A DNA stretch of 64,000 bases from Tricharina praecox. Its lineage: Eukaryota. Position 1 is the stretch's first letter. Each line of letters begins with the position of its first letter. This document shows, one piece after another, positions 13,697 through 44,230 of the stretch. Position numbers and translations under genes: made by a program. The notes under the pieces were generated by a model. That model did no database searches. It saw only the letters and a list, made by a program, of their open reading frames with translations, and had not been told where the DNA came from. Location: positions 62,001 through 126,000 of the forward strand of contig NW_026250424.1 in assembly GCF_024521635.1 (NCBI RefSeq), in the 5' to 3' direction.

Positions 13697-15114
13697 GGCG
13701 GGGTTGGCTGCTGTGTGCACTCTGGACTCTGGAGGGATAGTGTAGGAGAGAATTAGATGCGGATCGGTTCGTGGAACGTGAGATTACTTCGAGCGCTAAG
13801 TAGTGCCGTGCGACCAGGCTTTATGTAGAGTAGAGTAACTACACACATGGGACTGCGCTGCCAGACTCCATTCAAGCTTGAGTGGCCATTCTCTCCCGGT
13901 GGGCTGGATTCTTGGAATGCTATCAACTCTTATTCTATCCCACTCCGTCTGATGGACTCGAATCATTTTTTTCGTATGGTAGAGTATTAATTGCTCGCGC
14001 GACCCGAGTAAGTAAAAAAGCATCTGGATCATGGCAACACTGTACAGGTATGCATACGTACACCGACTCCCATCCACCGTCCAACCCGCCCTCGACCAGT
14101 ACGCAACGGCTCCCGAGTCCCCAGTCCCCAGTCCCCGTGGCCTCCGCCCTACCTAGTCATTTCCAAAGAAGCTATGTAGGAAAAGCCAGTATCAACTCCC
14201 GAGCCCCCATTCCGCCTCGGCCGCTGTCGCCTCCCCTCATCAGGAGGAGTCATGGATGGGTGTGTGAGAACCCTCGAATCCAGGACTTCCGCCTCTCCAG
14301 CCTGCGGTTCGTCCGCTCAAAGCTCCAATCTCGCAGCGCTCACTGCCCCTTGGCTCGCCATTAAGCACCCCGCACCCCGCACGCCGAGTGATACACTATG
14401 CAACCGCAACCAATGGCTCCATCGTGATTCGTGAAGCAGCACTTACTGTCCTCTACTCTAAAGAATCTGTGGCTTGGGAGAGCGGGCTTGGAATCGGTTG
14501 TGGAGGTGGAGGTGGAGGTGGAGGTGGAGTACCTATCCCGCAAGACGATAGAGAAGGTACATAGGTAGTGCTTGCGGGGTTTGGGGCACACATGAGCACA
14601 ATATGATATTGTAGACACCGATGTAGGTAGAGTATCGAGCGGCGATGTAGTGGAATGTATAGTAGAATGTATAGTAGGAATACGGTACGTGTTATGCTTT
14701 TGCTAGATCGCTAGTTCGTACTCGTCGAATACATGTGCTGTCACTCGTTCAACGAGCGATCTCTCACGAGTCAAGCTTCAGTATTTAATTCTTCGTCCTT
14801 CCCATCCTTCTTTCCTATCCTTCTCTCCCACCATCTCTCCTCCCATCTCTCTCACCATCTCCTCTTCTCATCTCACGAGCTCACCACCTGCGACCCACAA
14901 CATATTCAATCTTCTGCAATGTTCGAATTGAAATCGAACCAACTCACCCACTCGCTACAGTAAGCCACCCGATTATATAATCCTTCTTCTCAAATTGTGT
15001 TGACACATACCTCTGGAAAATCAAGAGAAAATGTCTCTAAGAACCAGAAGCGCTACACGACCTAGAAGAAGCTCAACAATCGCGGCAAAGGCTACCGTCA
15101 AGAAGACCGCCGAG

Positions 15115-15177
15115 AAGAAGAAGAAGAAGAAGAAGAAGAAGAAGAAGAAGAAGAAGAAGAAGAAGAAGAAGAAGAAG
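15115..15177. repeat. (AAG)21 microsatellite
   Basis: Perfect trinucleotide run inside cassette copy A, read as poly-Lys. Confidence 0.95.
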
Positions 15178-15568
15178 GCTGCCGCAAAGCCCAAGGGCAT
15201 TAGCAAGCGCGCGCCTTCGCCCCCGCTCCCCCGCCTCCTCCGGCCGCAGCCTTCGTCCCCGCTCCCACCCGGCACCACCAGGTGCACGGTAGAGTACACC
15301 TGGCTTTCGGCAAGAACAGCTAGTATAGTAAAGCTGTCGCAGCCACGGCAGAGACCCATTCCAGGGTAAACGGAAAAGCGAGACAATAACAACCTGCAGC
15401 TATCAAGGACACCTCTGCATGCGCAGGCGGCGTACGACAGTGAAACGATGATCAGGCAAGTATGCATAGAAAAGATAATTGCGAGCTAGAAGAAGAAAGA
15501 AAAGACCATGACTAGGGAAAGGGTATTGATTGACGAAAAGACCATGGATGGGGTAATGGTGGTGGGCA

Positions 15569-15687
15569 AGGCAAAGACGGTGGACAAGGCAAAGGCGGTG
15601 GACAGGGCAAAGGCGGTGGACAGGGCAAAGGCGGTGGACAGGGCAAAGGCGGTGGACAGGGCAAAGGCGGTGGACAGGGCAAAGGCA
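15569..15687. repeat. 18-bp minisatellite GGCAAAGGCGGTGGACAG, about 6 units
   Basis: Tandem units visible; absent from the other two cassette copies. Confidence 0.9.
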
Positions 15688-17728
15688 GCCGATGACTCGG
15701 CCATCTCCGCACTCAAGTCGAGCCTGGTGGTGTGCCGTGGTGTGCCGTAGTGCACACAGAGGTGTCTAGTAAGCTGCAACGCCACGGGTTCCGCAACGAG
15801 GTTTTCCATCGGGTTGAGATGCCCGGTGAGATGCCCGGCGGCATCAAGATGCACATAGAGGTCCCGGACACCTTAGGCTTCCTAGAGTAGCCGTTGGCCC
15901 GATGAGCTGAGGTGTCGCGCCCCCCGGGGGGCTTTACGTGGGAGGGTTACGTGGGAGAGTGGGAGAGTGGGAGAGGAAAGGGCGCGCGGCCGAGCTGCTT
16001 CGCTGCTTTGCGAGGTTACAACGACGATTAAGTAACGGTATGCCGGAGCTGGAGGGGAGGGGGGGGGGGGGGTGCGGTGGGTGGAGCTGGGGGTGGGGTC
16101 GTCTTTTTTTTTCTGTTTTTTTCTTCTTTTCTTCTTTTTCTTCTTTTCCAATCATAATCTTCAAAATAAACGATCAACCACTACCTTCTCTTTCTCCTCT
16201 TTTCCCACGTATGTTCTCCATCTCTCGACCAACCACCTTCCAGCCCGAAGGCTGCAGAGGCATTAGCGAATTACGAGCCCTCGCAAATGCCAAAAACGGC
16301 GAGGCAGCTTTTCGTCCACTGGCTGGCTGGCTGGCTGGCTGGCTGGTGCAGCAGTTTCCTGTCCCGTCTTCAGCTGGCAGGATCTTGAGGCCTGGCTGGA
16401 CCATCTACTCTACTTTGCGAACGGCAAGGTCATCGGCTGCGGCATAGCTTGGCCTAGGTATCCGTCAGCCTTCTCGATTTATTTCCAGCAACGCCTTTGC
16501 GTGGCCACTGGCCGGACCGCAGAGTGCCGAGTGACCTACAGTGACCTACAGTGACCCCGTAACCCCGTAATAGGGCCCACGCAACGAATGGCGACCAGAG
16601 TGGAGCAGCAGCTACAGTGAAGCAGCATCTAGGGATCTGTGGCTGGAAGAGCAGGCTGGAAGAAGAAGTACATGCATCTTACCTGCTAGGCACCTAATGT
16701 ATGTATGCCTAAGTCCCAAGGCTAGACCGCATAGCTATTACGCATGGCCAGACTGGATGGCCACCTATTATGGATCGCTATGGACACTTGACACTTGTTT
16801 CCCCATTCACCCTGCACGTATCTACCGAAACACAAGCCTAGAAAGGAACAGTCACGAGTGAGCTTGGAAGAACAATCACCGCCCAAAGCCAAAGCCAGCC
16901 AGACGTCGGCCGGCCGCAACCTGCAGATTCAGATTCACATTCACATCCCCATTCCCATTCCCATTCCCATTCCCATTCCCATCCCCATCCAGACTCGTCA
17001 CTGCATGGCCAGTATGGCTACATAATATACCAATTGTGTATTATCGCTCAGTGATCGCTGTGAATGCTTATGTATTTCTCCATTCACCCCGCCCCCAGCA
17101 CACCTACACCAGCACCTGCACATATATTTCTCTCCACCTCCGCCCACCTTGCTCACTCACACCCCATATCACCCATCACACCCCATCATCAAGCAGCTAA
17201 AAACTAACATTATTTTACATCGTCCCCCATAGCCCCATCCCCCCCCCCCCCCCCCCTCTGCAGTCAAACGAACGTTAAAGATAGAGTAAGTATGCTCGCA
17301 GCTCCGCTCAGCGCTCGCAGCCAGCAGCAGCCCGTAGCAGCCTATAGGCTGTAGGCTGTAGGTATATGCTATGTGTAGAAAGATCGAAAGATCGCGAAGA
17401 AAAAACGAGAGATATGTATAAAAAAAACGCCCGTCTGTCCACTCAAGTCAAGCCAAGTCCAAGCAGAAAAAAGCACACCTCTAACTACCAATACCAGTAA
17501 CAAGTACATACCTAATCAATATAAACCTCAGTAAAAAGAGTCGAGTCCAGTAACAAACGCTGAAAAGCAACAACCAACAACCAAATCATGCTCCGAAACA
17601 CCAAGGAAGAAAAGATTCCCAACATCCTATCCTCCAAACGCAGCAATCAAAAGAAAAAGAAACGCCTTGAACAGATCGGCTCCAAACGACAAACGACAAT
17701 CGGCCAATCGACAAACGACAGACCAAGC

Positions 17729-23762: not shown

Positions 23763-23849
23763 GCGGTCTGCGGTTCGCTCTGCGGTCTGCGGTCTGCGGT
23801 CTGCGGTCTGCGGTCTGCGGTCTGCGGTCTGCGGTCTGCGGTCTGCGGT
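23763..23849. repeat. (GCGGTCT)n heptanucleotide tandem repeat
   Basis: About 12 near-perfect units. Confidence 0.9.
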
Positions 23850-24321: not shown

Positions 24322-26134
24322 TATATACTAATCCATGAAGACCGGCGAATCACAATCTGTTCTTGTTGCTCACCCTTTCGAATCGGAATAATTCACAGAT
24401 GAACTAATCATGATATGTAAACAACTAGGCCAGAGTCGGTCGTGTCGTGTTTAAGCATCGTATGAGGTCGAGTCTCAACAAGAGAGACTGATAGATACAA
24501 GATAAACTACTCTACCTACACGGGCCACCTTTCTCTACTACTCTATGACATCGACGAAGGTGTAAGGGAGGGAGGGAGGGAGGGAGGGTGTCACGGATTT
24601 CAGCCACAGAATTGCAGCAGTGCAATGGTAGAATGGCAGGTAGCACTGCAGCACTGCTCTGCTCAGACCCTTCCCCCCTGATTCCCTGAGGAATTCCCGC
24701 AGGAAAGGAAAGGGGTGTGCATACGATATGAAGGCATGGTACCAGAGTAACCGACTCCTCCATCGGAAATCTTGCAGAGTTACACGAGGAAGCCCGTGCG
24801 GAGGAGCTTCTTTCGACGGCCGGGGACGAAGACGGCCCCGTTAAGCTCAAGAGCCACTCAACGAAGACATTCGCCTCCCCGGTTCGGTTCGCACGCAAGC
24901 TAACAAGCACAAGCAGCCGAAGTGCGGGCGGGGCGGGGTGGGCAAAGACATGTCCACTTGCCGCGCCGATGTTTACTATACTTTACCCCGGGTTTCCTTC
25001 AGGCTTCGGGGCGAGGCGAGGAGGTTCAGGTTCATCCGGATCAAGCCCCAGGTACTTTCCAAATAGGTAGAGTACCTCTACCGCACGGACTGCGGTAGTT
25101 GAGAGTCAAAAGCCATCGCCATCGCCGACGTTGAAGTGATGGGATTCGGGATCCAATCACACTCTGCGTCTGAGCATCAGCATCATCATCATCACATCCC
25201 CGCTCGAACACCTGCCCACACAACCAACCGGTACATACGGCCGCGGGCCGCTTTGACGGATACTCTTCCGAGATAGGTACTCTTCCGATACTTGGTTATG
25301 TACCTAGAGTACGTGCTGCTGGCCCCCAGAGTCCCCGACAATGCGGAGAAGGCGAGCCATATCAAGTATATACAGCACCTATGTACCTAGCCTTCGTCTC
25401 CGCCTCCTCCATCTCCATCTCCATCTCCGAGGAGTGTGTGGCCCACTCACCCACCGGTGATGGTTACAGTTACACGGTGCGCACTCTGCCGCCATGGCAC
25501 AGAGCACACGCTTATCCAGGTTTACCGCATGCCTACCGCACTCTACCCACACATGCGTGCCCGTCTCTTGGCGATCGATCAAATGTCGCACATACACGCG
25601 GAAGCACCTTGATAGAGTACGCAAGCTGCCGAATGAACCTAAAAGACCGGCTATTAACCTGGCTACCTACTACCTAGACGCCCCGCGTGGTGGAGTGGTG
25701 GAGTGGATGTGGTGGAGGCGAAGCACTCCATGGCCGGCGATCGAAGCTCTGTACCTAGAAGGCTGAAGCTGAACGCACACGCCCTGCGTGGTGGAGGCGA
25801 AGCAATGATGTTCATCGCCGAGACGAGACGAGACGATGGTTGAGATGGCCAGGACGATGGCCGCGATCCTGAGAGCGTGCGAGAATCGATCGTATGCAGG
25901 ATGTATGTAGAGTTCATACACGGGCCCTTTTCATGAGCTGCTGCTGCTTCTGCTGCAAGGTGAGATTCGGAACGAAAGATGAAAAACAAGAAGAAGAAGG
26001 AAAGAAACTCGAAAGAAACTCGATCGTTCAGCTCGTCGCCTCCTCGTCCTCGTCCTCGTCCTCCTGTCCGATGTCTATCACTTTCCTTCCTTCTTCTTCA
26101 AAAAGCAAACTGGAAACTGGAGTCTGACTCCAAG

Positions 26135-26194
26135 GAAGAAGAAGAAGAAGAAGAAGAAGAAGAAGAAGAAGAAGAAGAAGAAGAAGAAGAAGAA
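26135..26194. repeat. (GAA)20 microsatellite
   Basis: Perfect run. Confidence 0.95.
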
Positions 26195-29100
26195 GACACA
26201 TCGGTACGGATATATCCACATATCCACATATCCACATCCAGCAACCACAAGCAGCAATCACAAGCAGGATCCGCGCGATATAATTCCTTCTTCTTCGCCT
26301 CCGCTTCTCCTTCTCCTTCTTCTCCTACGCCTCCACCTTTGCCTCGCCGCCGCCGTCATCGTCGTCGTCCGATCATGCAATTGGGTTATTGGACCCTTAC
26401 TCTATAGTAGAGTACCTACCCTTCAAAGTTCAGCCGGCACCTCTCGCCTCAAACCTTCCTTCCACATCCCATCGCTTCCCGTCGCTTCCCCGCCCCTCCC
26501 CCTCCCCCTCCCCAATGCCCCCCAATGCGCAGCGAAACATGCCGTTTCGAAAGAAAAAGTGTAGATCGTGTCTACGCATCGCGGGTGGCGAAAACTTATC
26601 ATATCTAGTTATTGCCGCGATATAACTAGAGTATGTATAGTATAGGTTGTATAGGTTGTATAGGTACATCGCAACGCAACTGCCGGTGTCACGTTTGTAA
26701 TTGCATGCGCAGAAACACCCCCACAGCCCCCAGATTCCCAGAATCGACCGTAGAATGGCCCAGACAAACAGCTGGACTGGCTGACCTGGCTGGCTGGCTG
26801 GCTGGCTGGCTGTTTCGAACTCTCGATCGGTTGAATTCAAGCCACTTAGTCAGCCGGTCAGCTGCGCTGTTTTTATGCCAGTGTTTATGGCAGTGGTAAC
26901 TACAGCAGGGGCAGCCACCTCCAGATATGTAATCGCAGGTAGATATGCACACGCACACGCGTATGATATCAGCGTAGAAAGCTCCGCGCAGAAAGCTCGA
27001 GGCGCTGTTTATGTTTCTGTTTCTGTTTCTCTTTCTGTTTCGTCAGCTCCAGCCTCCAGCCCCCAACATCCAGTCTCCAACAGAAGTAATCAGCCACCGA
27101 ACCGACAAGCGACGGCGGGCTGGCCAGTCGGTCGGTCGGTAGGTAGGTCGGGGAACACTGCGTACTCCATGTGTGTATGATAGTAGGTATATAGAGCAGT
27201 ATTATGCGTGCACACATCTTACACGCCCGGATATATGTACGGATAGCATAATCGCATATATGTGGAGTATCTATGAGGCTTGAACAGACTTCCGAAACAC
27301 CCTATCCACCCTATCCTTTTCCGATTGCCCGGTTCCAAACCTAGTATCTATAGAGACAGGTAAACACCATGCGGTATGTAGACACCCGTTTCGCTTCGCG
27401 GGCGGGCTGATGGCCGGGGCGAGGGCGAGCTACCTCTACTCTACTCCAGAGTAGGGAGTTCGTCGGTAAAGATCCATACCGTACTCTACATACCTCATAT
27501 GTATTATGCATATAGGAATATGAGCCTTCATCTCCGAAGCCCATTTTTGGGAGGAAGTTGACGTGTGTGTGTGTGCGTGTGTGTGTGTGATCGCTCACTG
27601 CCGGTACTAGTACTCTACTCTATGCAATATGTATATGTATAATACTGACATCCGCCGGCTTGCTTACTCCCTTCGGCTTCGGCCGAAAGTTTAAAAATCC
27701 AAGTCCAAAGTGCCCCTATCTACATACACACTCGTATTCGCTGTGGCGCTTTGAGGCTCCGCAGAGCAGCGCTCCGTGGTAGGTAAGTATTCGGATCGTC
27801 ATCCGTTCGCTGCGCAGAGATATGTACTGGTGTCCGACATATAGCAGAGTGATAACTACCTGGCAGTGGGCGAAGCCGGGTTTCGAGAAGATTTCCCGGT
27901 GAATAAAGCCGGGCGGATGGATCATGGTCTGCGATTCGGTACATACATACGGTATTGCGGTATTCAAGTTTGGTCCTGATGCACTGGAGTGGACTCGGAG
28001 TGGTGTACGCCATTCGCTAGAGGCATAATAATGGTGGTAATGGTCATTGACTCATTGGTGGTGGCGGGCGGTAACATGGTCGAGTGGTCGAGTGGTGATG
28101 GGCATCGAATTGAGGGCGACATGGTTGATGGGCATGGTGGATGGGCATGGTGAACCAAGAATTCAAAGCACCACCTCTCTCCACTCGAGAGTCCTCAGTC
28201 GACAAAGCCACACGCCATCATGACCTGTCACTCTACGCGTGCTCTTTCAACTTCGAGCCTTAATTATTAGTGCTTACAATTGTCGCCCCTTCCCCCCACT
28301 TTTTTTTCGCGCTATGCTTATACTTTACGCCTGCCAAACTGCTATATGTAACTAGCACAGTAGAACGGTACAATTGGACAGACAAGGAAGGAAGGAAGGA
28401 AGGAAGGGTCCCTCCCTCCTCCTTGCCTGCTACTCTAGTTCGTACCGTACCGCTGCCCTTGCAGACTCGCCATATCGCCCCCCTCGCAATCCCGCCCGAA
28501 AGTCACCCCGGACTACGCAGCACTATAACTAGTGACGCACGCCAAGCGCGGCGACGACAAAGCATGAATAATCATCCATCATCCATCATCCATCATCCAT
28601 CGTCCATCATCCATCGTCGACCATCCACCATCCACCGGCCGCGGTCCGGCTTCCGAATGACGCATGGTTATTAGATACTCTAAAGCACGGGGCGGGCCCG
28701 GGTTTTTACGGTGCCGTGCCGCGCCGAAGCCGCGGAGTAACGGACCCACGGAGAGCGGAGAGCGGAGAGCGGAGAGCGTTTCGGCGGGTATGTAGGTAGG
28801 ATGTAGGTATGATGCGGCGCCCGGATCCGCGTCGGCTGGCGGAATTGGCTGGGCACTGGGCACTGGGCACTGGGCACTGGGTACACAGTGGGTGCGCGCT
28901 CGCTCGCTCGGTTCCTTGCGTGCTGCGTGCTGCGTGCAGTACAACTGTAATCCGGCACATGCGGGCGGGCTCGATGGCGATGGCGATGGTACGATGGCAC
29001 GATGGTTGGTGTGCTGTGTATGGTAGGTATCATAGCTACTCTACCTAGGGCGTCGCGATGGCTTTGTACCACGCTCCACCACCGATTCAGCGAATGAATG

Positions 29101-30264
29101 CTTGTGCACCAACGACTGCGGGAATGTCGCCTGAGAACAACATTGAACATTGTATCTATAGTATGAGGTAGGTAGCCGCCCACGCCGAGCACTGCACTGG
29201 CACCAGCGTTTTCGATCACACCCCGCTGCCGGACCGTACTAGATTGTATGCTCGCGGATAAGTACCGTACACTCCTACAATGTAGGTACGTGTCGACATC
29301 ACCACGGTAGTTATGTCCGAGTGCTTCACAATACCTCGGTCGTGAAACACCCACCAGCCGCTCGTCTGCGATCGCCGGGTCTATGTACATACTTTGATAA
29401 GTTTCTTTACTGTGCTCGGAAACCAGGTACATAGCCGCTCGTGAAACAACAGTCCCTTTTGCGCTAGATAAAGCCGTGGTGCTGCGCGATGATGCTCTAC
29501 CTACCGTACTACTGTAGCAGGTATGTATATACCATGTTCTTCACCAGCGGATATCCAGCCGTGGACGTTAGCCCACCCGCCTCGGCCCGGAAGCGTGAAG
29601 CCCACGTTCGGGGAGCGGGGGACGCCTCAGCATGACCAATCACTCCAGTCTCTGGCTTTGTGGTGTTCGAGTATGTAAGCATTCGGTGCGGTGGGAGCAG
29701 CCAGGACTACTACGTGGTAACTAAGCCCGATACGATTGCCCAGCAATCACATCACTGCTACATACTTGTTATACTCTAGACCGCTCCTGGTGTCGGGCTC
29801 TCTTTCCCGTTGGCCTGTGGGAATAGGTATGTAGACAGCCGTGTTGCGGATTCACCGCAGGTCACTCGGAACTCTGCAGTCTACGGATTGGATTGTCGTA
29901 TCAAATCGTTGAGAGATTCGGTCGTGCTCTGGATCGGGCGTAGAGGCCGTCTCGCAGCAGCTGCGTTGGTGGTTGCCGAGGCATTAGGCTGGCAACGTGG
30001 TGCGGCAACGATCGTCGGCCGACTCATTGTGGCTGCGCCCGGTGCCGTTTAGAGAAGCGATTGTTGGAATATTTCGATTGTGTGGGCACATGTGATATGG
30101 TTACTTACTTCAAAGGGAGATCAAGTGACGAGTCAGTCACAAAATTGAGCCGTCTGGCGTGTGGCGTATGGAATAATTTTTAGGGTCCGCAAATTTACAT
30201 GTGCTGTTAAAGAGCGAGTGATATATAATGTTTCAGTGCTACACCACCGTGAAGGTTGCTGGTT

Positions 30265-32500
30265 CCGGCCGACATAGAACTTCCGATGTTGACCCCACCG
30301 CTCGTAACGAAGAGGGTCCGGCAGGCCTCAAGATCCCGCCAGCTGAAGACAGGACAGGACACTGCATCACCAGCCAGCCAGCCAACATCTCCCCCATCGC
30401 ACCCTCCTCCCGTTCCGCCACAACGCCGTTCTGCCACAACGCCGTACCGTCACTTAATCGTCGTCGTAACCTCGCAAAGCAGCGAAGCAGCGAGGCTGCG
30501 CGCCCTCTCCTCTCCCACTCCCCCACGTAACCCTCCCAGCCCCCTGGGGGGGGCGCGACACCTCAGCTCCTCGGGCCAACCGAGAATGCCCAAGGTGTCC
30601 GGGACCTCAATGTGCATCTTGATACCGGGCATCTCACCCCGACGGAAACCTCGTTTCGGAACGCGTAGCGTTGCAGTTTACCGGACGCCTCCGGGCACAC
30701 CAAGGCACACCACGGCACACCACCAGGCTTGACTTGAGCGTGGAGATGAATGCGTTTTCGGCGCGGAGATGGTAGGTGTACCTGGTGGTGCCGGGGATGA
30801 AGGCTGGAGCAGGAAGGGGGGGGGGGGGGGGTCATCAATTTTATTTCGCATCTATGAGCCTTTGTAGACTACGGCGAACACCAACTACACAACCAACCCT
30901 ACTCCGTCCGCGAGACTAGCTATGCGGCTCTCCCTATTGCCCTACTGGCCCCATCGGTGGTTACCACTCCTCCCCACCATCCTCCTCAACTCCTCCCACC
31001 TCCTCCTCCCAACGTTTCGGTTCGTCTTCCTCCCCAGAGGCAGATTCATCTCCTCTTCCTTCCCATTTTTTCTCCCTGGCCCTTCTTCCCACATCGGCCG
31101 CCTCCAGAAATTCCAGAACTGCTGCTGTGCACCTCCCATCCGCAAATAAATCTGCGATTCGAAAACGCTCTCGTCCACGCTTTGTTTGTATGTAGCCGGA
31201 CTACTTTCCATAGTTGCTTTCTGTTGCTCCCGCCAGCCATGCGGTACACACTTTGAACAGATTTTCGCGTGATTGGGAGGCTCCAGGTACTTTGGAGCAC
31301 CACCTGCACTAGTCATTCGATTGGCTTCCAATTCGTTTCAGATATGGTGCAGTAAGGGCTTGCACTGTCTTCAGCTGCCGCCTTGGGGGTGGCCTTCGCG
31401 GCGATTCGGGTGCTTCTTCGCGGCCGTGAGGCGCTTCTGGTTCTGGGCGCCATTGTCTCTTGATTTTCCAGGTGTGTTAACATAATTAGAGAAGAAGGTT
31501 TATCGATCGGGTGGCTTACTGTTGGAGTGGGCGAGTTGGTCCGATTTGAATTCGAAAATTGTAGAAGAGTGGATATTTTGTCGGTCGCGGGTGTTGAGGT
31601 CGTGAGATGAGATAAGATGGTGGAGTAGATGGTGGAGTAGATGGTGGAGAGATAGTGGAGAGATGATGGGAGAGAAGGATGGGAAGGACGGACAATTAAA
31701 TAAAGTACTAGGTCAAAAGTTTTCGTACGATGGCCGTTTTACACCAAAAATGCCCATTTTTAAGTAACCAAGACCCACCCTTCACGTGGCGGAAAAAAAT
31801 CGAGTCTTTCATAAAAGCTTTAATATCGCAAGTTGCATCACATATAAGAAGTCTGACGGGGTTTGCTTCGGATCGGTGGCGCATGGTGCGGTGTTGTGCA
31901 CGGGTTGGAGAGTGATTTCGGATTTTGCATGGGGCCCCCATACAAAATGATTGCGTGACAACCAGTTTCAACACCAACTTCTCTCCCATACGGCATTACT
32001 CGACCACCACCAGTTAGAATTATGTGCCGATTTCAATCGAGGTTCTCAACTTGATTTAGAAGACTTTCTGATAGCCCACATATTTTTATACCACCTTATG
32101 GTTGCTGTATCTATGGCGGGAAATGACCTGCATCGGTGAAAGGGAAATCCGCTAAGCCACCCTATTTCGCATAAAATAATCCTCCTGGCGAGCTGAAAAT
32201 CTTATTGAAGCTTTATTAGTATATATTCATGATATATGCCAATTATTGGTACTCTCTTAAGTGTGGTTGTTGTGTTATAGAGATATATGTCTGTGGGGTG
32301 GTGGCGCTTTTGGGGAGGTGTACGAAAACTTTTGACCTGGTATTTTACTTACGCGTGACTCATGAGAGCTCGCTCGTTGTACGAGTGACACTATATGCAT
32401 TCGACGAGTACGAACTAAAACTATGTCAGTGTCTACAATTTTATATCATGCTCACGTGTGCCCAAAACCCTGCAAGCACTACACTATGTACTCTATGATA
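30265..32500 (-). repeat. Dispersed gene-like repeat cassette, copy B (inverted, interrupted)
   Basis: Reverse complement aligns to copies A and C. ATG 31453 opens MAPRTRSASRPRRSTRIAAKATPK. Interrupted by the MITE at 31708-32340 and an unrelated segment at ~30830-31370. Confidence 0.85.
31708..32340. mobile_element. MITE, 633 bp, 21-bp TIRs, TA target duplication (Tc1/mariner-type signature)
   Basis: CTAGGTCAAAAGTTTTCGTAC (31708-31728) vs reverse complement CCAGGTCAAAAGTTTTCGTAC (32320-32340). TA at 31706-07 and 32341-42. Cassette homology resumes on both sides. Confidence 0.92.
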
Positions 32501-35095
32501 TGCAGAGAAGACTGACTGCGTGGCACTCGTCTCCAGCTCTGTCACCTCATCGATCGGCATCCGCGGGCGCCTTGTGCCTTGCGCGCCTTGCGCAAGCGAA
32601 AGACGCGTGGGGGCAATCCCGGTATGTACTCTACGTCTACGCTCGAGATCGTCAAACACGGCGGCGGGGGAAACGTCTTCACTCCAACCACTATTGCGTG
32701 GTAATTGTAATAGAGATATCGATCAATACTCCTCGGCGAGACTTTTGTTTCTCGAGGCGAAACCCTTGGCGGGGAGAACTTAGAAGTATGGATTACCGCC
32801 AGAAACTCCTGTTTATGAAACAGTCTACCGGACCAGGGATGGGCTTCGATGTGTGCTCACTGCCCGGGGCCGGTCATGGAAGGGAGAGTATTGCTTGTGC
32901 TGTGCACTGTGATTCGTCATTTCCTTCTTCTGTTCGGGGGAGGGCATGAGTGGTGGCACCAATTGTTGAGACTCGAGCCATGGAAGAATCGGCCTCTTTC
33001 GTTCATTTACACGTCGATTCCGCTTCGGTTTTCTCTAGTATCTACATACCTGTTCGATTGGACTTCAGGCGTTTGAATTTTGACTGTAGCGAGGAGTACT
33101 CGGCAAGATCTTGAATTGACTCTTGAGGCTGCAGAGGAGCCGACGATGCACCCACGTAGTCCTAGGGAACGAGAGAGGAATAAGGGGGAGAAGAGAGCCC
33201 AGCGGTCAGGTGGGAGCAGGTGGTACTGAGGATCAGGCGTTGAGTCCGTCCTCATCATACCCGCCACGGTAATGTTCAAAAGCCATCTCGTCTTCTGTCT
33301 CGATGTAGCTCGATTCCGCGCGGTGACTCAGTCTCCACCCACCTTCCAATGATACCAAGAGACTTCGATGCCTTTGGGGATATCTCTACCGCTTTTATAT
33401 TCCCGGCTTGAGTCTTGACTGTCTTAGATCCCGCCACTTCGGTTTCGGGATCCTCACGGGCACCTACTCTACATACCGGTATGGCTTGTGTTTGGCGGGT
33501 ACATACAAGGTACGAGACCGATTTTGCACTCAGCTTACCCAGCCCCGTGGGTACATACATCTTGTAAGTTATTTCTCGGTGCCTCGGGACCCGGCCGGAG
33601 GTGGAACGACCGGGATGTATTACCCTCTACAGTTCTCTAGAGGGTGGAGGCCGGGGGGCGCCGCCGCAGCAGCAGTAGACTCGGGACGACAGTTTACATT
33701 TCATCTTAGTACCCTGCCTACAGCGCTTCTGTATTGGCCGGCCTCATTCCTCATTCCTCGTGGGTCGGGCTCCTTCTTGCCCGCAGGCTGCAGCTGTCAG
33801 CCCTGGGAAAGCCATCGCGCCCTCGAGCGGCTAGCCAACCGGAGAAACCCACCGATCCGGAGCCCGAGAGCGATACCATAGTCATCCTACACGCCTCGCA
33901 GCCGGCCATGTCCGTCTGACACTGTCGTCACAGCAACGAGTATGTAGCAGTCGGTCGCAGTGATCTTGAGGCCTCATACCGATATTTTTGAACAGGTCGC
34001 TCAGACTGAGGCTGTAGTACCGTAATCGCCTGACTACCGTAGCGGATTGCTTCCGCCAGCACGGTGCCGCGACTCGCAGTGTGAGATGTCACGATGAAGA
34101 CATCGATATTCTGATCGCCGTACTCTACTCTACCTACTCTACTATGCACAGATGGTTATGGATGACCACCGCACCCACGCGCTCGGAGTTGCCACTCTCG
34201 CGGCCGCCGGTAGTACTGTACCACGCAGTGCCACGCAGTACAACCTCTATCTCGAACGGCAAACCCATCCCCATCCCCATCCCCATCCCGATTCCCCATG
34301 TCCATCCCAATCCCAATCCCAATCCTGGCATCACATCCGGCCCGAACGGGGGGCCGCAGGGGGGCGGGGCCACGGAGTTTCCACCCCCTCCCCCTGCCCT
34401 GTCGCACCGTGTGTAACGGCGCCAACCAGCCGGGATCAGATGGAATTTCCTGTTTCCCCTCAAAACTCCGGGGACCGGGGGCTCGAGGTGACACAGCTGT
34501 GAAACTCCGGACAATTCCGCCGGATAGAGTAGAGTAGAGTAGAGTACGGTAGCAAAGGCCAATTTGGGCCTTTTATTCCTTTCGTCGGTGCGAGCAGCGA
34601 TAGAGAGAGAGGGCCGGGCGGAGACCGAATCTGCGGCCTGTGGTCGGGACAGCGGCAGAGACGGATGAGGCGATGTCACTGCCATGGTCCAATAAGGTCG
34701 AATGCAAAGAAGGGGATACATAAAACATGAAGTGACACCTAATCCCTGAGCCCGACCCGATCCCGTACAGATCTCCGCGTGCGTAACTAGGGAGGGAAGA
34801 ACGGCAGTACGTCACAGCCACTCGTGTCCCAACGATCGTTGACTCCTTTCGGCACGCATCGCAGTGCAGTGCACTGCACTGCAGAGGCCGAGGCAAGAGC
34901 AGCGAAACTTGACATCTGATCTGACGGTAGGGTTGGTGATAGGAGGACTCAGGAGGTGACGGATGGCATCTGCAGTCGTGCGGACGAGAGTATATATCCC
35001 CCCATTACTCGGCCCAATAGCTGTACTGTAGATATCATACCTCAACAATACGGAAACCCAACAAACCACGAAGAGAGGAAAGAACCCCAACGCAA

Positions 35096-38000
35096 ATGGA
35101 CGAACTGACCAACAAGCTCGCCAACCTCGAGACCGAGGATGTCTCCAGCCGCGACAACTCCGTTCACTCAACCCCGTCGAAGACGGTACCCACGCCCTCG
35201 CCGATCCCGGGGCCGCCCGGGCTCCCCATCCTCGGGAACCTCACGGACCTCGACCCAGAGGTGCCATTGACGACGTTCATGCGGCTGGCGGACACGTACG
35301 GGCCGGTATTCTCACTGCAGCTCGGCGGCGGGCCGAAGCGGGTCTTCATCAACTCCGTCGAGCTGCTGGAGGAGGTGTGCGACGAGAAGCGCTTCGGCAA
35401 GATCGTGACCGGCGCGCTGGAGCAGCTGCGAAGCGGCGTGGGCGCAGGATTGTTCACTGCCCACACAGACGAGAAGGAGTGGGGTATCGCTCATAGGATC
35501 CTCATGCCCGCGTTTGGCCCGCTGGCTATCAGGGAGATGTTTGATGGTTTGTTGTTGTCCCCGTAAGCTGTGGACGGGGGAACGGAAGCTTATTGCAGGG
35601 TGTAGATATGCACGATATTGCCTCGCAGATGGTTATGAAGTGGGCGCGGTACGGCCCCGAGCACCGCATTCTGGCGACGGACGACTTCACGCGGCTGACG
35701 CTGGACACGCTATCGCTGTGCACCATGGGCTACCGGTTCAACTCGTTCTACACCAGCGATATGCACCCGTTCGTCGACGCCATGGTCGACTACCTCGTCG
35801 AGTCCGGACGGAGAGCGAACCGGCCCAAGCTGGCGAGCTTTCTCATGCGCGGGACGAACCAAAAGTACGCCGCCGATGTGAAGCTGATGCGCGATGTGGC
35901 CAGTGGCGTCGTCAAGACGAGGAGGGAGAATCCAACGCAGAAGAAGGACCTGCTGAATGCTATGATAAACGGAAGAGATCCGAAGACGGGCGAGGGGCTG
36001 GAAGATGAGTTGATTTATAGCCAAATGTAATCCATGCCCCTTCACATCTCTCGGTGTCATCACCATGCTGACGGCGACTCGCAGGATCACTTTCCTGATT
36101 GCCGGCCACGAAACCACATCAGGGCTATTATCCTTCGTCTTCTGCAACCTCCTGCAGCACAGCTCGGCCTACAGGGCCGCACAGAAGGAAGTCGACGACG
36201 TCTGCGGAAAAGGCCCGATCACAGCCGATCACCTGCCAAAGTTGAAATACATCTCAGCGGTCCTCCGTGAAACTCTGCGATTGAACCCCACCGCTCCACT
36301 ATTCTCTACGACCCTGAATTCCAATCAGGACCAAGACTCGGCGACTCTCGGAAACGGCAGATATGCCCTCGAAAAGGGACAAGCCATCATTGCCGTGCTG
36401 CCGAATATCCACCGTGATCCGAAGGTGTACGGCGAAGACGCGGATGTGTTCAAGCCAGAAAGGGTATACATCTCCCACTGCTCCCCTGCAGTAGACTGCG
36501 CCATCACATCACTAACAGGTAGCAGATGCTCGACGAAGAATTCGAAAAACTCCCCGCGGCCGCCTGGAAGCCGTTCGGAAACGGCATGCGCGGCTGCATC
36601 GGCCGGCCCTTTGCGTGGCAGGAGTCCCTACTAGTAGTGGCCCTGCTCCTGCAGCACTTCAACTTCGCCCTCGACGATCCTAACTACAAGCTGCAGCTGA
36701 AGCAGACACTCACTATCAAGCCAAAAGACTTCTATATGCGCGCGACCCTTCGCGACGGCATCGACGCCACCAAGCTCGAAAGAACCATGGCCGGCAGCAG
36801 CGCCACAGCGACGACAGAGGGAATCGCGAAGCCCGGGGAGGAGAAGGCAGCGGCAGCGGCAGCAGACAAGGACAAGCCGGCGCGAAAACCAATGTCGATC
36901 TTCTACGGCTCCAACACGGGCACGTGCGAAGCACTGGCGCAACGGCTTTCGACCAGCGCCGCTTCGCACGGCTTTGATGCAGCGATAGCAACTATGGATT
37001 CCGCGAACGGGAAGCTGCCGAAGGACCGGCCTGTTGTGTTCATCACCGCATCGTACGAGGGGCAGCCGCCGGATAACGCGACACACTTCATGGAATGGCT
37101 GCAGTCCCTTACCGGGGATGAAGCGGCGGGGACGAGTTTCGCCGTGTTTGGGTGTGGCCACCGCGACTGGAGGTCGACGTACCAGCGCATCCCGACGCTG
37201 GTCGACGAGCTGCTGCTCGCTCGCGGCGCCACCAGGGTCACCCCGAAGGGAGAGGCCGATGCGTCCCAGGGGGACATCTTCACCGAGTTCGACAATTGGG
37301 AAGATGCACAGCTCTGGCCGACGGTCACGGAACGCTTCGGTGGAAAGCCTGTGGCAACTGACGAGGCTACTACGTCGACTGTCTTGGTCGAGATTTCGTT
37401 TAAGAAACGCTCATCTAACCTGCGTATGGATGTGCGGGAAGCTCGAGTGACCGCTGCACACTGCCTCACCGCTCCAGGAGAGCCAGAGAAACGTCACCTC
37501 GAGATTGAACTCCCGAGCGACATGCCCTACCGCGCAGGAGACTACCTTGCCATCCTCCCCGTCAACCCTCGGGAGACCATCAACCGCGTGATGAAGCGCT
37601 TCCAGCTGCCATGGGACGCACACCTGCACATCTCGTCCACCGCGCCCACCGTCCTGCCCACCGACAGCGAGATCTCAGCGCACGACATCCTCGCCACCTA
37701 CGTGGAGCTCTCCCAGCCCGCGACCAAGAAAAACGTGCTCGCGCTCGCCGCCGCCGCAGACAGTGACCAACCCTCGATCAAGGCGTCACTCGAAGCCCTC
37801 GCCAGCACCTCCTTCCACGCCGAAATCACCCTGAAGCGCACCTCACCACTCGACCTCCTCGAGCGCTACCCCACACTCCTCTTCCCGCTCGGCGACTTCC
37901 TCAGCATGCTCCCGCCGATGCGCATGCGGCAATACAGCATCTCCTCCTCGCCGCTGACCAACCCGTCGCAGTGCACACTAACCTACAGCGTCCTCGACGC

Positions 38001-38613
38001 CGCCAGCAGCTCCTCCCCACCGCACCGCCACATCGGCGTAGCAACCACCTACCTCTCCACGCTCTCGCCGGGCAACGTCCTCCAAGTCTCCGTGCGCTCC
38101 TCCGCGCACTCCTTCCACCTGCCGCTGAACCTCGCCACGACGCCGATAGTAATGGTCTGCGCCGGCTCGGGTCTCGCGCCGTTCCGCGGGTTCGTGCAAG
38201 AGCGAGCGACGCAGCTTGCGGCGGGCCGGCAGCTCGCGCGCGCGCTGCTTTTTGTCGGCTGTAGGTACCACGATAGGGACAGACTGTATGCGGACGAGCT
38301 CAAGGAGTGGGAGAAGGCTGGTGCTATCGAGGTACACTATGCGTTCTCGAGAGAGCCCGAGTTGGCGGAGGGGTGTAAATATGTTCAGGATCGCATGCGG
38401 AAAGACGTGGACATGCTCATGGAGACGTGGGATGCGGGCGCGAAGGTGTTTGTGTGTGGTGGGGCAAGGGTAGGTGAAGAGGTCTCGAAGGTGTGTAAAG
38501 AAGCGTATAGGGAGAGAATGCGCGGGAAGGGAGAGGAGAAGACCGAGGACCAGGCGGAGGAGTGGTTCGCCGCGCTCAGGAATGAGAGGTTTGCTACGGA
38601 TGTTTTTGATTAG
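35096..38613 (+). CDS. CYP505: Bifunctional cytochrome P450/NADPH-P450 reductase (CYP505, P450foxy/BM3-like fatty-acid hydroxylase); 4 exons
   Basis: AGHETT I-helix, ETLR, PER, heme motif FGNGMRGCIG, FMN loop YGSNTGT, RQYSISS, GSGLAPFRGF, C-terminal DVFD*. Three GT-AG introns restore the frame. Confidence 0.96.
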
Positions 38614-39674
38614 CTTGGGGCCAGCGAACCATAGTCAGGTTTTGGAATGTCTTTAGCTGCAGAATGAAGTTAGGGTTCGACAGTACAGACTGTGTGCTTC
38701 CTGTGCATGTCGAGCGGGATATCGTTGAGGCAATGTGCTACACACACACAGTCGCCACACTGTGGCTGAACACAAGACGTTCACAGCGAAGCACTCACTG
38801 CCGAATCATGACTCCTTCGTTGACAGATCATTGCGTCTTCGAAGGTTCCCATCCGTATTGGCTCTGGACGCGAGTACTCAGCAGCCTCTTCTGTCGTGAA
38901 TGTAATCCCAAAAGAAAGAAAGAGGGCACTTGCACATACCTACGTCACCAACGTCCGCCAACCAAATCTTACACACAATGTGCAATACCTACCGGTCGAT
39001 GTGCACGCACGCTGTGAGTGGCTGCCACCGGTCATGAGAAGATGAGCGGTTGCGGTTGCGGTTGTGGTTGTGGTTGTAGATGTCGGTAGGTTGTGGAATG
39101 AACATGTTGTATGTAGGAGCTGGAAGGACTTGAAGGAGGCCGGAAGGAGGCGAGAACTCCGGCCACCTCGGCACTGCGACCCCACACTCGTAAATTTGGT
39201 TCGTTGTGGTGTGCATCTACTAGCGATCACTATCTACGATCAGATGCGGAGAGATTGAGCTGCGGAGAGCTTATACACATCCGAGCATTGCAGAAGCCGT
39301 TGGCCAAGGAGATATCATTCTTCTCTACGAGCTTCCCTTCGCATGCTGGCTGTAGGCTGCAGCATCGTCGTCGTTTTTGCAAGGTGAGGGGCCCCCATCT
39401 TAGCACGATGGTCGGTGGCAATCGAGCGGGGAGCGGGAAGGGGCAGCGGACATATGTACTGCGGTCCGCAATCTTTATTTGGAAGTCACTCGTGACTTGT
39501 CTCCTTACCTCTGATGTCGCGTCCCTGACGCCGTTTTGACGACGTCCGTGCGGATCGTGACGTCAATGCATACCGACAGGCTTGCTATATAAACGACGAC
39601 GAGCCTGTCCGAATTCCTTCTCCCTCCCATCTGGAACCATACGCACTTTACACACAACGACTTTCTACATCATC

Positions 39675-40493
39675 ATGCCTCGCGCCAAACATCCCACCGC
39701 CGCCCCCGCCGCCGCCGCTCCCGCTCCCCCTCCTGCGCACGAGGAAGCCGAAGCCGAAGCCGAAGACGCCACCAACTCTGGCTACGCCAGCACGTCGAGC
39801 TGTGGCGGCGGCAGCAGCTACGACATCACAACGCACGCGTTCGCGCTGCCCAGCGGGGCGAGCTGGGGCGATGCAAGTTGGGTGCGGATCCGGCACGATG
39901 ACTTTCCGTTCTGGGACGAGGCGACGGGCGAGCCGCTGGCAAGGAATCAGCAGAACTTTCCGAATACCATCTGGGTCGACGCTAACGAGGAGGAGCGCGA
40001 GGAGGCGGAGTGGGCGGAGTGGGCGGAGAGGACGGAGTGGGTGAGGGAGAGGGATAGGGAGAGGGAGTGGGTCAAGGAGAGGGAGAAGGACGGTAAAAAG
40101 GGAAAGGGGAAGGGGAGGGGGAGGGGGCCCGGCGAGGGCGATGATGAGGATGAGGGTGAGGTGGTGGGCTTGGATGAGGGCATGGGCGAGGGCGAGGACG
40201 AGGAGGGGGAGGACGTCGAGAAGAACGATACAACCGCCCCGCCGCCGAAGAAACGAGCCAGGATCAAGAAAGAACCAGTCCAGAAGAAGAGCGCACCGAA
40301 GCCCAAGCCGGCGCTCAAATCAAAGCCGGTACCGAGGCCCAAGCCGCCGCCGAAATCAAAACCGGCGCCCAAGTCCAAGCCCAGCATTGCCGACAGTACG
40401 CCGAGGTCTGTTATTGCGAAGGGGAAAAGGGTGGCCGCCAAACCCAAGGCGGGAGAACCGGCGAAGGTGGCAACTTCGCAGTCGGTGGGTTAG
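39675..40493 (+). CDS. Hypothetical low-complexity protein (acidic middle, Lys/Pro-rich C-terminus with NLS-like PPPKKRAR)
   Basis: Intronless ORF from ATG 39675 (MPRAKHP). TATATAA at ~39586. GC-rich coding-like composition. Confidence 0.65.
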   Translation: MPRAKHPTAAPAAAAPAPPPAHEEAEAEAEDATNSGYASTSSCGGGSSYDITTHAFALPSGASWGDASWVRIRHDDFPFWDEATGEPLARNQQNFPNTIWVDANEEEREEAEWAEWAERTEWVRERDREREWVKEREKDGKKGKGKGRGRGPGEGDDEDEGEVVGLDEGMGEGEDEEGEDVEKNDTTAPPPKKRARIKKEPVQKKSAPKPKPALKSKPVPRPKPPPKSKPAPKSKPSIADSTPRSVIAKGKRVAAKPKAGEPAKVATSQSVG

Positions 40494-40797
40494 TTTTGCG
40501 GATGTCCTGTTGCTGTATCATTGTAGTGCCCGACCTTGCTGTCCGTCCGGACTTTACTGTTTCTTCTGGACCTTGCGGTTTCTTGCAGGTTTTGCTGTTA
40601 CTTTCGGACCTTACTATTACTTTCGGACCTCACTGTTGCTTTCTGACCTTGATCATTTCATACTTAGTATACTTTTCGCTTTGATGGACAGCATGTAAAG
40701 ATGCATGAAGGTTTTCGAGTTGGGATTGAGCTAGGAGTGGCAGTTGTACCAAATTTAGGTCTTAGCATTTTGCGGAAGTGTATGAAAACTCCTTGTT

Positions 40798-42427
40798 TCA
40801 GCGAGACATCGCTCCATATTTTTCCACCCAGCTCACGTATTTCTCACGGCTCGACCTCATCTCGCCGTACGGCCACCGGCCCTTCTCGCTCATATCGACT
40901 CTGCACCCCTGCTCCATCCACATCTTGAACGTCTCGACCGCATCTTCGGGGAACCAATGCTGCCGTCCCTCCGCCTTCCTACACCTGCGTTCCATGTACT
41001 CGTACACCTCCTTTGCCGTCGTCTTCGCCCGCTCGTAGCAGCTCAGGTCCAAGTGCCTTTCCACGAATCCGGCGCCGACCTGGTACCGCCGCTCCTCGGG
41101 CACCCAGTACGGATTGGCAAAGAGCGCGGCTATGTCGGTGGCCCACGTAGGGTTCGTCGCGATCAGGCGCGGCGGGTGCGGGGTGAAGCCGTGAGGACGC
41201 AGGTGGGGGACGGGGCAGTCTGGTGCCGCCGCGGGAATGTGCGACGGGACGCAGTCACAGTTGCGGCTCCAGCGAGTAGTTCCGAGTGACCTATTCAGCC
41301 AGTCGACGCCGCGCGCGGGCACCGGGCGTGTGCTCCCGTCCGGAGACATCTCGATCGGCCCCGTGTCGAGGTAGCGCAGCGCGTATGGAAGGGCGCTCCC
41401 GAACGCCGCCAGCTCGATCGGCCCCGTGTCGTGGCGCAGCGCGCATTCAAGGGCCCAGCCGCCCCGGCTCACGGGCAGCGGCCGGTGGATCCGTCGCCGG
41501 CACTCGGCGAGCTTCGTGTACTCGAGCACGCCCGTGTACGTTTGTAGCTTCGCCTGCACCGTGGTGAGGTAGGCGGTGATCTGCGCACGCATCACGGTGA
41601 GAGTCGCGCCAGGTGATGGGAGTGATAGGAGGTGCAGGAGGTGGAGGAGCTGCCACTCTGGCGACGAGGGGTCCGCGGCGTGAGGCGAGTTCTGCACGTT
41701 CGTGAGAAATGCACGCTCCGGAACACAGCACGTCGACATGCAGTCACAGCTCGCGGTCGTCTCGGGCAGATAGTCCAGCAATACCCCTCTACGCCAGGAG
41801 TACACGGGATTACAGAAGTCGAACATGAGGATAGCGATCATCACCCTCGCCCGAAGCGGCAGTGCGTCTGGAGCCCATACGCAAGGGTTACCGTACATAC
41901 CCTGCACATCGCCGGGTGCGAGTGATGCGCCGACGACAGCAAACGGCACACCCTCGCCCGCCAGCATCGCGGCGAAACCGACTTGTCTAGCGCCGGGAGC
42001 GCCCACAACCGTACCAAATGTGCGGTGCTTGCTGATCCGCCACATAGTTGGATCGTAGTCCTGCAACAGGACTATGTCGAGGTACTGCGCGGCCTGGGCG
42101 TAGTGTTCGCGGCTGCAGCGGAAGTTGATCTCGGCGAGGTCGGGCTGCAGGGTGGGAGGTCAGTCAAAGCGTCATACGGCCACGGAAACCACGCCTACAT
42201 ACCAGCAACTGGAATTCAGCCCTACCTAAGAGCGCGGGATTGACGAAATGCTCCAGCGGAATCCGATATCCGTCACCATCCTCGACCGCGTTGACGATGC
42301 TAACCTGCGTTGTCGTTAGGAAGCGGCCGATGCACGGTGGATCCGCAGTTGGACCCGCCGCGATGTCGTGGTCGTGGTCTTGTACCGCAGAGCGCGGGAA
42401 GGTGCGGTCGCAAGCCATTAGCGTCAT
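40798..42427 (-). CDS. Hypothetical protein, ~520 aa, 2 exons (intron 42202-42145)
   Basis: GTATGT..CTGAC..CAG intron joins ORF 42427-42203 in frame to the long ORF ending at 40798. Globular, motif-like sequence (DFCNPVYSWRRGVL). Confidence 0.7.
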
Positions 42428-42884
42428 CTTCAGTCGTTAGAGAGTCAATTTCTGTAGCAGTTGCAGCGTGCAGTGCGTGTGCTGTGGTGAAAGTCGAATC
42501 GGAATCGGATGTGGGAGCTGGTTGTTTATGTGCCGTGGTTTGCGAGGGTCCCGTTGAACGAAAGGATCGAACCCAACTTGGAGCATGAGGATGTGCCCTG
42601 GAGATTCAAGCCGAGTGAGCAGGATCACTTCAAAATGAATTAGGGCTTCGCAGCTTGGAAGGGTTTGGAAGCGATTGGGGGAAATGATGGTGGAGGACCA
42701 GGACATGATATATCACTCTCACCACAAAGGCACTAGTGTATTTTGTGACACTCTACATCACTCGCTCCATGACGGCACGTGTAAATTTGTGGTCCCTAAA
42801 AAAATTGTTCAATACGCCAGACGACTCAATTTCGTGACTGACTCAATAACCCTTAAAAGTATTTAATAGCTGCGAGACAGCTTC

Positions 42885-44230
42885 AGAGTTCCGAGTGGCC
42901 TACAGTGACCTCGCAACAGGGCCCACGCCACGAATGGCTTCCATCGTGAAGTATCTACGGAATCTGTAGCTTGGGGGTGCGGACTTGAAACCTGTTGGGG
43001 AGGTGGAGGTGGAGGTGGAGCACCTATCCCGCAAGACGATAGAGTACATAGTGATTGCGGGGTTTGGGGCACACATGAGCACGATATAATGTAGCCCCAT
43101 CGAATGGCGCTGCAGTGACATATATTAGGAATACGGTACATGTTATGCTTGCACTGGATCGCTACTTCGTACTCGTCGAATCCATATGGTGTCACTCGTA
43201 CAACGAGCGATCTCTCATGAGTCAAGCTTCAGTCTTCGTCCTTCCCATCGTTCTTTCCTATCCTTCTCTCCCACCATCTCTCCTACCATCTCTCTCACCA
43301 TCTCCTCTTCTTAGCTCACGAGCTCACCACCTGCGACCAACAACATCTCTACACTTCAGCAAATTTCCGAAACTAAATCGAACTCAGCCACTCGCTTCAG
43401 TAAGTCACCCGATCGATATTCCATCTTCTCTAATTGTGTTGACACCTTTGGAAAATCAAGAGAAAATGGCTCCAAGAACCTGAAGCTCCACATGGCCGAG
43501 AAGAAGTCCAAGAATCGCGGCAAAGGCAACCGCCAATAAGACCGCCGAGAAGAAGAAGCCGGCGCCCAAGATGGCTGCCGCAAAGCCCAAGGGCATTATC
43601 GAGCGCGCCCCGAAGAAGCCTGCCCCCAAGAAGCCTGCCCCCAAGAAGCCTGCCGACAAAAAGTCGGCGCCCGCCGCAGTCCCCGCTCCCCTGCCGCCTC
43701 CCCCGCCGTCTTCGCCCTCACCCCGGCACCACCAGGTACACGTACCATCTCCCCGCCAATGACTCGGTCATCCATGCACTCAAGGAGTGCCCGGAGCCGT
43801 CGGGCAAGTTTGAACGCTACGCGTTCCGCAACGAGGTCTTCCGTCGGGTGAGATGCCCGGTGGCATCAAGATGCACATCGAGGTGCCCGGCACCTTGAGC
43901 TTCTTCAGTTGACCTGAGGAGCTGAGGTGTCGGGCCCTGGCTGGGAGACTTACGTCGGAGAGGAAAGGGTGCGCGGCATCGTCGCTTTGCATGTCTACAA
44001 CTAAGTGACGGTTGGGGAGAGTGAGGAGAGCGAGAAGGAGGAGGAGGAGAAGCTGTCGCGGAGAGAAGAGGAATGGGTTGAGTAGTGGGCAGCAACGTTG
44101 GTGCGAACCAACGTTGGCGGGTATGGCGGGGTCGTCTTTTTTTTTCTTCTTTTTTTTTCTTCTTTTCTTTTTTCGATCATAATCTTCAAAATAAACGATC
44201 AACTACTATCTCCTCTTTCTCCTTTGTCTA
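42885..44230 (+). repeat. Dispersed gene-like repeat cassette, copy C (least interrupted; nonsense codon and frameshift)
   Basis: ATG 43466, TGA at codon 6 (AGA in A and B), then PRRSPRIAAKATANKTAEKKKPAPK..KKPAPKKPAPKK. 3' block ATCATAATCTTCAAAATAAACGATCAAC is shared with copy A. Confidence 0.85.

Follow-up and report, generated by a model that had tools for sequence, protein, structure and literature searches.

The 64,000-nucleotide (nt) stretch of Tricharina praecox DNA analysed here (the window; assembly GCF_024521635.1, contig NW_026250424.1, positions 62,001 to 126,000 of the forward strand) carries three copies, designated A, B, and C, of a small cassette with an open reading frame (ORF) for a basic protein. 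The question raised by this locus is what the cassette is, an ordinary gene or a mobile or selfish unit, and how its copies came to lie between unrelated genes. Our analysis points, with moderate confidence, to a species-restricted gene family that was amplified locally at the DNA level and now consists mostly of pseudogenes. It looks like an ordinary local gene-family expansion rather than a high-copy mobile element. All coordinates below are those of the window.

Structure of the three cassette copies

Copies A and C lie on the forward strand and copy B on the reverse strand, and the three share ordered blocks that are 73–98% identical (BLAST E down to 1e-173). A repeat search of the window yielded ten direct blocks without gaps shared by A and C (77–98% identity) and twelve inverted blocks shared by B with A or C (76–92% identity). 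Short-word BLAST joined the blocks colinearly, with E values of 3e-173 for A and C, 4e-85 for A and B, and 9e-60 for B and C. In a three-way alignment the order was the same in all copies: a block designated S, a GGAGGT microsatellite, a conserved upstream block, and a pyrimidine repeat tract, followed by a GTAAG donor, 61–66 nt to an AG just 5′ of an ATG, and the ORF. The donor is at 14960 in A, 31519 (reverse strand) in B, and 43400 in C; the ATG is at 15031 in A, 31453 (reverse strand) in B, and 43466 in C, and the sequence context preceding it is common to all three. The N-terminal 28 codons align without a gap across the copies, and the terminal stop codon of the frame is at the same place in each. 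These results bear out a preliminary description of this DNA, made from the sequence alone, which had reported three copies with ordered blocks that included the pyrimidine repeats, the donor, the ATG context, and the N-terminus. The same description had assigned to A and C a Lys/Pro/Ala-rich (K/P/A) tract and a T-rich block containing AATAAA, and both were found in these two copies and not in B.

Copy A (14384–16445, +) consists of the S block, a promoter region, a putative intron in the 5′ untranslated region (5′UTR; 14960–15025, with the GTAAG donor and the AG acceptor just 5′ of the ATG, conserved in the three-way alignment), a broken ORF, a 3′ block, and a block designated W. Its N-terminal ORF of 112 codons (15031–15366) comprises the basic start, an (AAG)n poly-Lys run, a Pro-rich linker, and a stop. 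An insertion specific to this copy (15290–15690) is followed by the C-terminal segment (15691–16035), which is spread over three frames and ends at the stop common to all copies. The T-rich 3′ block is at 16092–16198, with AATAAA at 16165–16170, and the W block, a tail common to A and B at 89% identity, is at 16332–16406. Directly 3′ of copy A lies a second S block (16508–16689, +), the start of another unit, designated stub A′. The (AAG)n run of copy A (15106–15177) would encode about 24 consecutive lysines. A second long (AAG)n run was seen at 26136–26196, within an unrelated ORF (25983–26561).

Copy B, together with the blocks downstream of it, occupies 29838–32603 (−), and its 5′ homology is weak above 32496. 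A putative intron (31459–31519, −) precedes an N-terminal ORF of 46 codons that ends in a stop (31316–31453, −). In place of the K/P/A tract is an unrelated segment (30830–31380, −), and the C-terminal segment (30450–30831, −) is distributed over three frames, with the shared stop at 30450–30452. Copy C (42748–44227, +) consists of a block designated X (42748–42844), the S block (42881–42951), a promoter region, a putative 5′UTR intron (43400–43460, also conserved in the three-way alignment), a broken ORF, and a 3′ block, and is cut off before W. Its reading frame extends from 43466 to the shared stop at 44006–44008, and its T-rich 3′ block is at 44125–44223, with AATAAA at 44190–44195.

Conservation within the cassette is highest in a non-coding block about 250–330 nt 5′ of the ATG (14700–14783, 32346–32417, and 43150–43236). 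At 35 positions of this block all three copies are identical, and it holds a short imperfect palindrome.

The limits of the copies were less regular than their interiors. The S block is repeated downstream of copy A (16508–16689) and of copy B (29838–29881); X follows B (30130–30231) and precedes C; and W is found 3′ of A and of B (30311–30384), without a counterpart in C, which ends at about 44227. Further out into the flanks, no homology among the copies was detected. The placement of S, X, and W therefore indicates that the units are not cleanly bounded, and that every copy spans a little more than one unit, each in a different phase. Such phasing suggests a template of units joined head to tail, as a pair or an array, or else a circle. 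One specific arrangement, in which an inversion had cut a single unit into stub A′ and the 5′ end of copy B, was rejected; the homology of B runs weakly to about 32603 and overlaps the content of A′.

Coding evidence and an unbroken paralogue

Differences among the copies at codon positions 1, 2, and 3 numbered 23:8:29 in the first 28 codons and 39:14:60 in all definable in-frame blocks. These counts are pairwise, so they are not independent, and the three later blocks, not the N-terminal one, were picked for reading well as protein, which is a bias. Because of the 39:14:60 skew, the cassette is, as judged from its sequence, a real coding gene.

A profile was built from the in-frame fragments of the C-terminal segments of A, B, and C and was searched against 1,835,955,588 protein representatives. 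At E ≤ 0.001 five proteins were returned, of which two were credible, both from T. praecox: KAI5846838.1 (P0001) and KAI5846846.1 (P0002). Two of the others (P0003 and P0004) were spurious; both are long and carry internal repeats, and their matches consisted of 9 and 8 short stretches on only 27–32 profile positions. The fifth (P0005, 2121 residues, 5 stretches on 36 profile positions) was discarded on the search table alone.

KAI5846846.1, a protein of 142 residues, matched the profile at E = 7e-23. Its frame is unbroken from the shared N-terminus through the C-terminal segment, and the fragments of A, B, and C tile along it. It is not encoded in the window, where its best tblastn identities, 77% and 51%, were both to copy C. 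A word-based search with this protein among proteins of 78–249 residues returned only itself. The true frame of the C-terminal segment is set by copy A and KAI5846846.1, and against it the "RCP" motif that had been listed among the shared protein features proved to be an out-of-frame reading.

KAI5846838.1, a 93-residue "hypothetical protein" and the single close match to the frame of copy C, is the gene model of this copy: two of its exons are 100% identical to the window (43571–43627 and 43927–44001), and its middle part lies at 43722–43859. The model begins at an internal Met, and two introns allow it to skip a frameshift and a stop. What it annotates is most likely a pseudogene, and the annotation of copy C, which bridges stops and frameshifts with invented introns, calls for correction.

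The models of copy C and of the paralogue, together with KAI5846839.1, a cytochrome P450 at 58.8–59.9 kb of the window, are all on one contig of 676,897 nt, and KAI5846838.1 and KAI5846846.1 are eight accession numbers apart. Since accession order runs from copy C to the P450, the numbering rises rightward, which places the fourth locus seven gene models past the P450. We infer that it lies about 10–25 kb beyond the right end of the window. With its unbroken annotated frame, this fourth copy is probably intact and is a candidate working gene.

Decay of the window copies

Each of the three copies was found to be broken in its own way, as the preliminary description had stated. Copy A carries the insertion of about 400 nt, with eight copies of an 18-nt minisatellite (15501–15698), two in-frame stops, and further frameshifts. 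Copy B is interrupted by a 655-nt miniature inverted-repeat transposable element (MITE) in its promoter and by the unrelated segment, about 550 nt long, that replaces the K/P/A tract, and it also has frameshifts. Copy C has a TGA at codon 6 (43481–43483), a frameshift before the C-terminal segment and a second one within it, and a stop (TGA, 43910–43912) where A and B have a Trp codon. The MITE (31697–32351) has 32-nt terminal inverted repeats (TIRs; 31697–31728 and 32320–32351) that are 91% complementary, and a TA duplication was seen by eye; no second copy of it was found in the window. Repeat-induced point mutation was rejected as the cause of decay: among 1436 ungapped positions, 14.6% of them different, transitions and transversions numbered 107:102, and dinucleotide indices gave the same answer.

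Copy number and distribution

We infer that the family has four or more loci and one stub, spread over some 70–85 kb of the 677-kb contig. The earlier description had set a simple local duplication of only three copies against its own reading; the copies found are indeed local, but they number at least four, plus the stub, and not three. Its proposal of a high-copy selfish or mobile family was not supported, with only two protein models, in one species and on one contig, and with a depth over the cassette at most about 3.3 times that of the flank.

This depth, the only genome-wide hint of copy number, was obtained from run X1, which contains 82% of the window's sampled words and whose contigs were aligned at ≥80% likeness. 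Thirty-seven contigs were placed, 9 of them at ≥99% identity, 2 at 95–99%, 6 at 90–95%, and 20 below 90%. Their summed depth was 7–29 over the cassette, compared to 8.66 over the left flank, a rough measure and not a copy number. It leaves room for roughly 3–4 copies, which are already supplied by A, B, C, and the fourth locus. Shortly beyond the right end of copy C, at 44424–44534, the summed depth in X1 was 27 compared to about 9 nearby, and three contigs diverge from the window after 44534; a further family of short repeats may lie here. In run X4, whose RNA nature is a guess, an exact 235-nt contig covers 43962–44196 and ends where other contigs branch, and it was left unused as evidence for expression, polyadenylation, or the intron.

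A search of metagenome contigs with the 35-base conserved upstream pattern gave 0 matches, and a search with KAI5846846.1 gave 589 pattern matches, of which 0 were confirmed. Among the listed papers on the T. praecox genome, none treats the locus as far as titles and the beginnings of abstracts tell, and its locus-tag prefix appeared in no paper. Taken as a species-restricted duplicated gene family, the cassette shows coding constraint and paralogues in one genome, and no homologue was found elsewhere among 1.84e9 representatives and the metagenome contigs.

Features of mobile elements and other repeat classes

The preliminary description had seen no TIR and no transposase. No TIRs were found at the ends of A, B, or C, so the first statement holds for the cassette ends, but the MITE inside copy B carries repeats of just this terminal type, the only ones present. 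The second was borne out: 43 ORFs of the window were scanned against Pfam, and no transposase, Rep/helicase, or recombinase domain was found outside the two gypsy elements at 47–57 kb. Target-site duplications were not definable, as the ends are unsharp and each copy loses homology at a point of its own. In C, A′, and B′ the S blocks do not share, at their left ends, the 5′ TC preceded by A that marks Helitrons; this is a weak negative, and the right ends, where a Helitron would carry CTRR with a subterminal hairpin, are undefinable from three decayed copies.

S lies on both sides of A and B, as a long terminal repeat (LTR) would, but the interior is a small gene without gag or pol, which speaks against both an LTR element and a solo LTR, and the cassette has no similarity to the LTRs of the gypsy elements in the window. 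Nor are the copies processed retrocopies. The gene was copied together with about 600 nt upstream of it and with the putative 5′UTR intron, which supports the earlier proposal that a whole gene was copied as DNA with its promoter and intron. Rfam at gathering thresholds gave 0 matches and a search for tRNA and tmRNA gave 0 matches; the cassette is therefore not a unit of the short interspersed element type.

Origin of the copies

The favoured explanation, a locally amplified gene family, runs as follows. The unit is about 1.5 kb long, with its own promoter, a putative 5′UTR intron of 61–66 nt, and a poly(A) signal, and encodes a product of about 140–200 residues with a very basic Lys/Pro/Ala-rich N-terminal half and a short family-specific C-terminal segment. 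Short-range copying at the DNA level would have amplified this gene, the template probably being a head-to-tail pair or array of units and the most likely route an ectopic, repair-type duplication. The three window copies have since decayed to pseudogenes through stops, frameshifts, the MITE, the minisatellite, and the replaced segment, and the fourth copy, just right of the window, has kept its unbroken annotated frame. If so, the locus is an example of a species-restricted gene that was born, locally multiplied, and lost again.

Several observations weigh against this explanation. The copies occupy three different intergenic regions, between unrelated genes (the SET-domain gene, the histidine kinase gene, and the P450-reductase gene), in both orientations; such dispersed placement fits a mobile unit and is not a product of simple tandem duplication. 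The explanation does not account for the arrival of differently phased copies of slightly more than one unit at these three sites. Identity in the upstream non-coding part (82–90%) equals or exceeds that in the N-terminal coding part (71–83%), which is unusual for decaying pseudogenes and is likewise not accounted for. The tally of loci was drawn from the window and from protein-database models, and the protein databases undercount the family, the ORFs of copies A and B being without an entry. The depth in run X1 is not a copy number either, and 28 of its 37 contigs, being below 99% identity (20 of them below 90%), are not assignable to loci.

Much of this would be expected if the cassette were a non-autonomous mobile unit, either a captured gene or the product of a circular or rolling-circle intermediate, that hops locally and inserts slightly more than one unit at a time. 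Each copy has an intergenic region of its own among unrelated conserved genes, and both orientations occur; S flanks A and B, and X and S precede C, as from a head-to-tail or circular template; the upstream part is conserved as much as the coding part or more; and clustering of the copies is compatible with local hopping. We nevertheless consider a mobile unit unlikely. The ends lack TIRs, neither sharp ends common to the copies nor a target-site duplication is definable, and the left ends of S are without the Helitron 5′ dinucleotide after A. The window has no Rep, helicase, or transposase among the 43 ORFs apart from the gypsy elements, the rough copy number is only about 3–4, and both annotated family members are on one contig. 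The codon-position pattern indicates selection on the protein, as in a host gene. A bolder form of the idea, a new kind of transposase-free selfish gene unit with its own promoter and a chromatin-directed basic protein, spreading to nearby intergenic sites through a head-to-tail or circular DNA intermediate and inserting a little more than one unit with its 5′ block on both sides, seems to us improbable indeed; if it were true, the conserved upstream block would serve copying as well as transcription. A mobile or circle-mediated origin is kept at low probability because of the unexplained placement and phasing of the copies and the upstream conservation. Were the copies to stem from a circular or rolling-circle intermediate, whole genes would have been moved over short distances without a transposase.

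The same partial next unit after A and B would also be left behind if the copies were relics of a single ancestral tandem array, scattered by inversions or other rearrangements with breakpoints inside the array. The inversion of B relative to A and C and the restriction of all known copies to one short chromosome stretch agree with this, but the complementary halves that it predicts in stub A′ and the 5′ end of B were not found, several independent rearrangements would be needed to put conserved single-copy genes between every pair of copies, and we regard this history, too, as unlikely. Least probable of all, and very doubtful in our judgement, is that the repeat is non-coding, for example regulatory or structural DNA, and the shared ORF accidental. 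Such DNA would agree with three observations: every copy in the window is broken, the searches returned no family, fold, or homologue beyond the species, and conservation is highest in the upstream block. Against it, differences strongly avoid codon position 2 and favour position 3; several indels are in frame (a 3-nt gap in B, and deletions of 3, 3, and 15 nt in other contigs); the stop codon has kept its place in all copies; the frame of KAI5846846.1 is unbroken; and there is no Rfam or tRNA match.

The encoded protein

KAI5846846.1 has an isoelectric point (pI) of 10.3; its residues 1–60 have a pI of 11.8 and include 18 Lys and Arg and 12 Pro residues. Neither KAI5846846.1 nor KAI5846838.1 matched any Pfam family at E ≤ 10, including linker histone H1 (PF00538) and HMGN (PF01101), and the ORF of copy A gave sub-threshold low-complexity matches only. 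The best match in a search of PDB had an E value of 1.1. AlphaFold2 models reached a pLDDT of 49 without an alignment and 57 with an alignment of the paralogues, with a single helix at residues 82–92. The Atlas model of KAI5846846.1 had a pLDDT of 0.49 and gave no usable feature match or neighbour, with all structure rows at TM < 0.35. By these predictions, the product is probably disordered and has no confident fold. The "histone-H1-like" label given to it earlier thus fits in composition, which is basic and K/P/A-rich, but not in a globular winged-helix domain, for which there is no Pfam match and one short predicted helix. From charge and composition only, a nuclear role in association with nucleic acid or chromatin is a reasonable guess.

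Other features of the window

The other genes of the window are ordinary fungal ones and include those for a myosin-I, a SET-domain protein, a hybrid histidine kinase, a P450-reductase fusion, a P450, and a DHHC palmitoyltransferase. At 35021–38613, domains of a cytochrome P450 precede flavodoxin, FAD-binding, and NAD-binding domains, all in one direction, the arrangement of a self-sufficient P450-reductase fusion gene.

A full-length Ty3/gypsy retrotransposon was found at 49134–56505 (−). Its 693-nt LTRs are 98.4% identical, and its open frames are gag (53772–55802) and pol (49966–53193), the latter with reverse transcriptase, RNase H, integrase, and chromodomain. The element is probably young. 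A second pair of repeats, 303 nt long, inverted, and 87.5% identical (47387–47689 and 56505–56807), adjoins its right LTR, and a gypsy integrase-SH3 fragment was seen at 48173–48637. The repeat pair and the fragment suggest that an older element was disrupted at the same site.

Comparison with known systems

Among known systems, the cassette resembles orphan gene families with local segmental duplication in several respects. It occurs in one species only and encodes a small, fast-evolving, probably disordered protein; its paralogues lie on one chromosome stretch; and the copies have their own promoter and intron, most of them decayed and one apparently intact. It differs from such families in that its copies are non-adjacent, with unrelated genes between them and in both orientations, and in that the copies slightly exceed one unit and differ in phase.

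Helitron gene captures and Pack-MULEs place DNA copies of a gene, promoter and intron included, at new intergenic sites, and the captures are typically fragments. The cassette shares with them the DNA-level copying of a gene with its promoter and intron, and no transposase is encoded by the copy. In contrast to them, it has no recognised Helitron termini, TIRs, or recognisable target-site duplication, its copy number is low, and a whole gene under past coding constraint was copied. The wtf genes of Schizosaccharomyces pombe and the Spok genes of Podospora are small, lineage-restricted, dispersed selfish genes with many pseudogenes and their own promoters, and in these respects the cassette is similar: its copies are small, lineage-restricted, and dispersed, many are pseudogenes, and each has its own promoter. 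It has no sequence similarity to these genes (Pfam gave nothing, and the profile search only the two T. praecox models), its copies are not flanked by LTRs, and meiotic drive is without support here.

At the level of the protein, the tails of linker histone H1 and the HMGN proteins offer the closest likeness in composition, a very basic, Lys/Pro/Ala-rich, and probably disordered region, although the cassette protein has no globular H1 domain and no HMG14/17 match. Its short Arg/Ser-rich N-terminal motif is reminiscent of the nucleosome-binding core of HMGN proteins.

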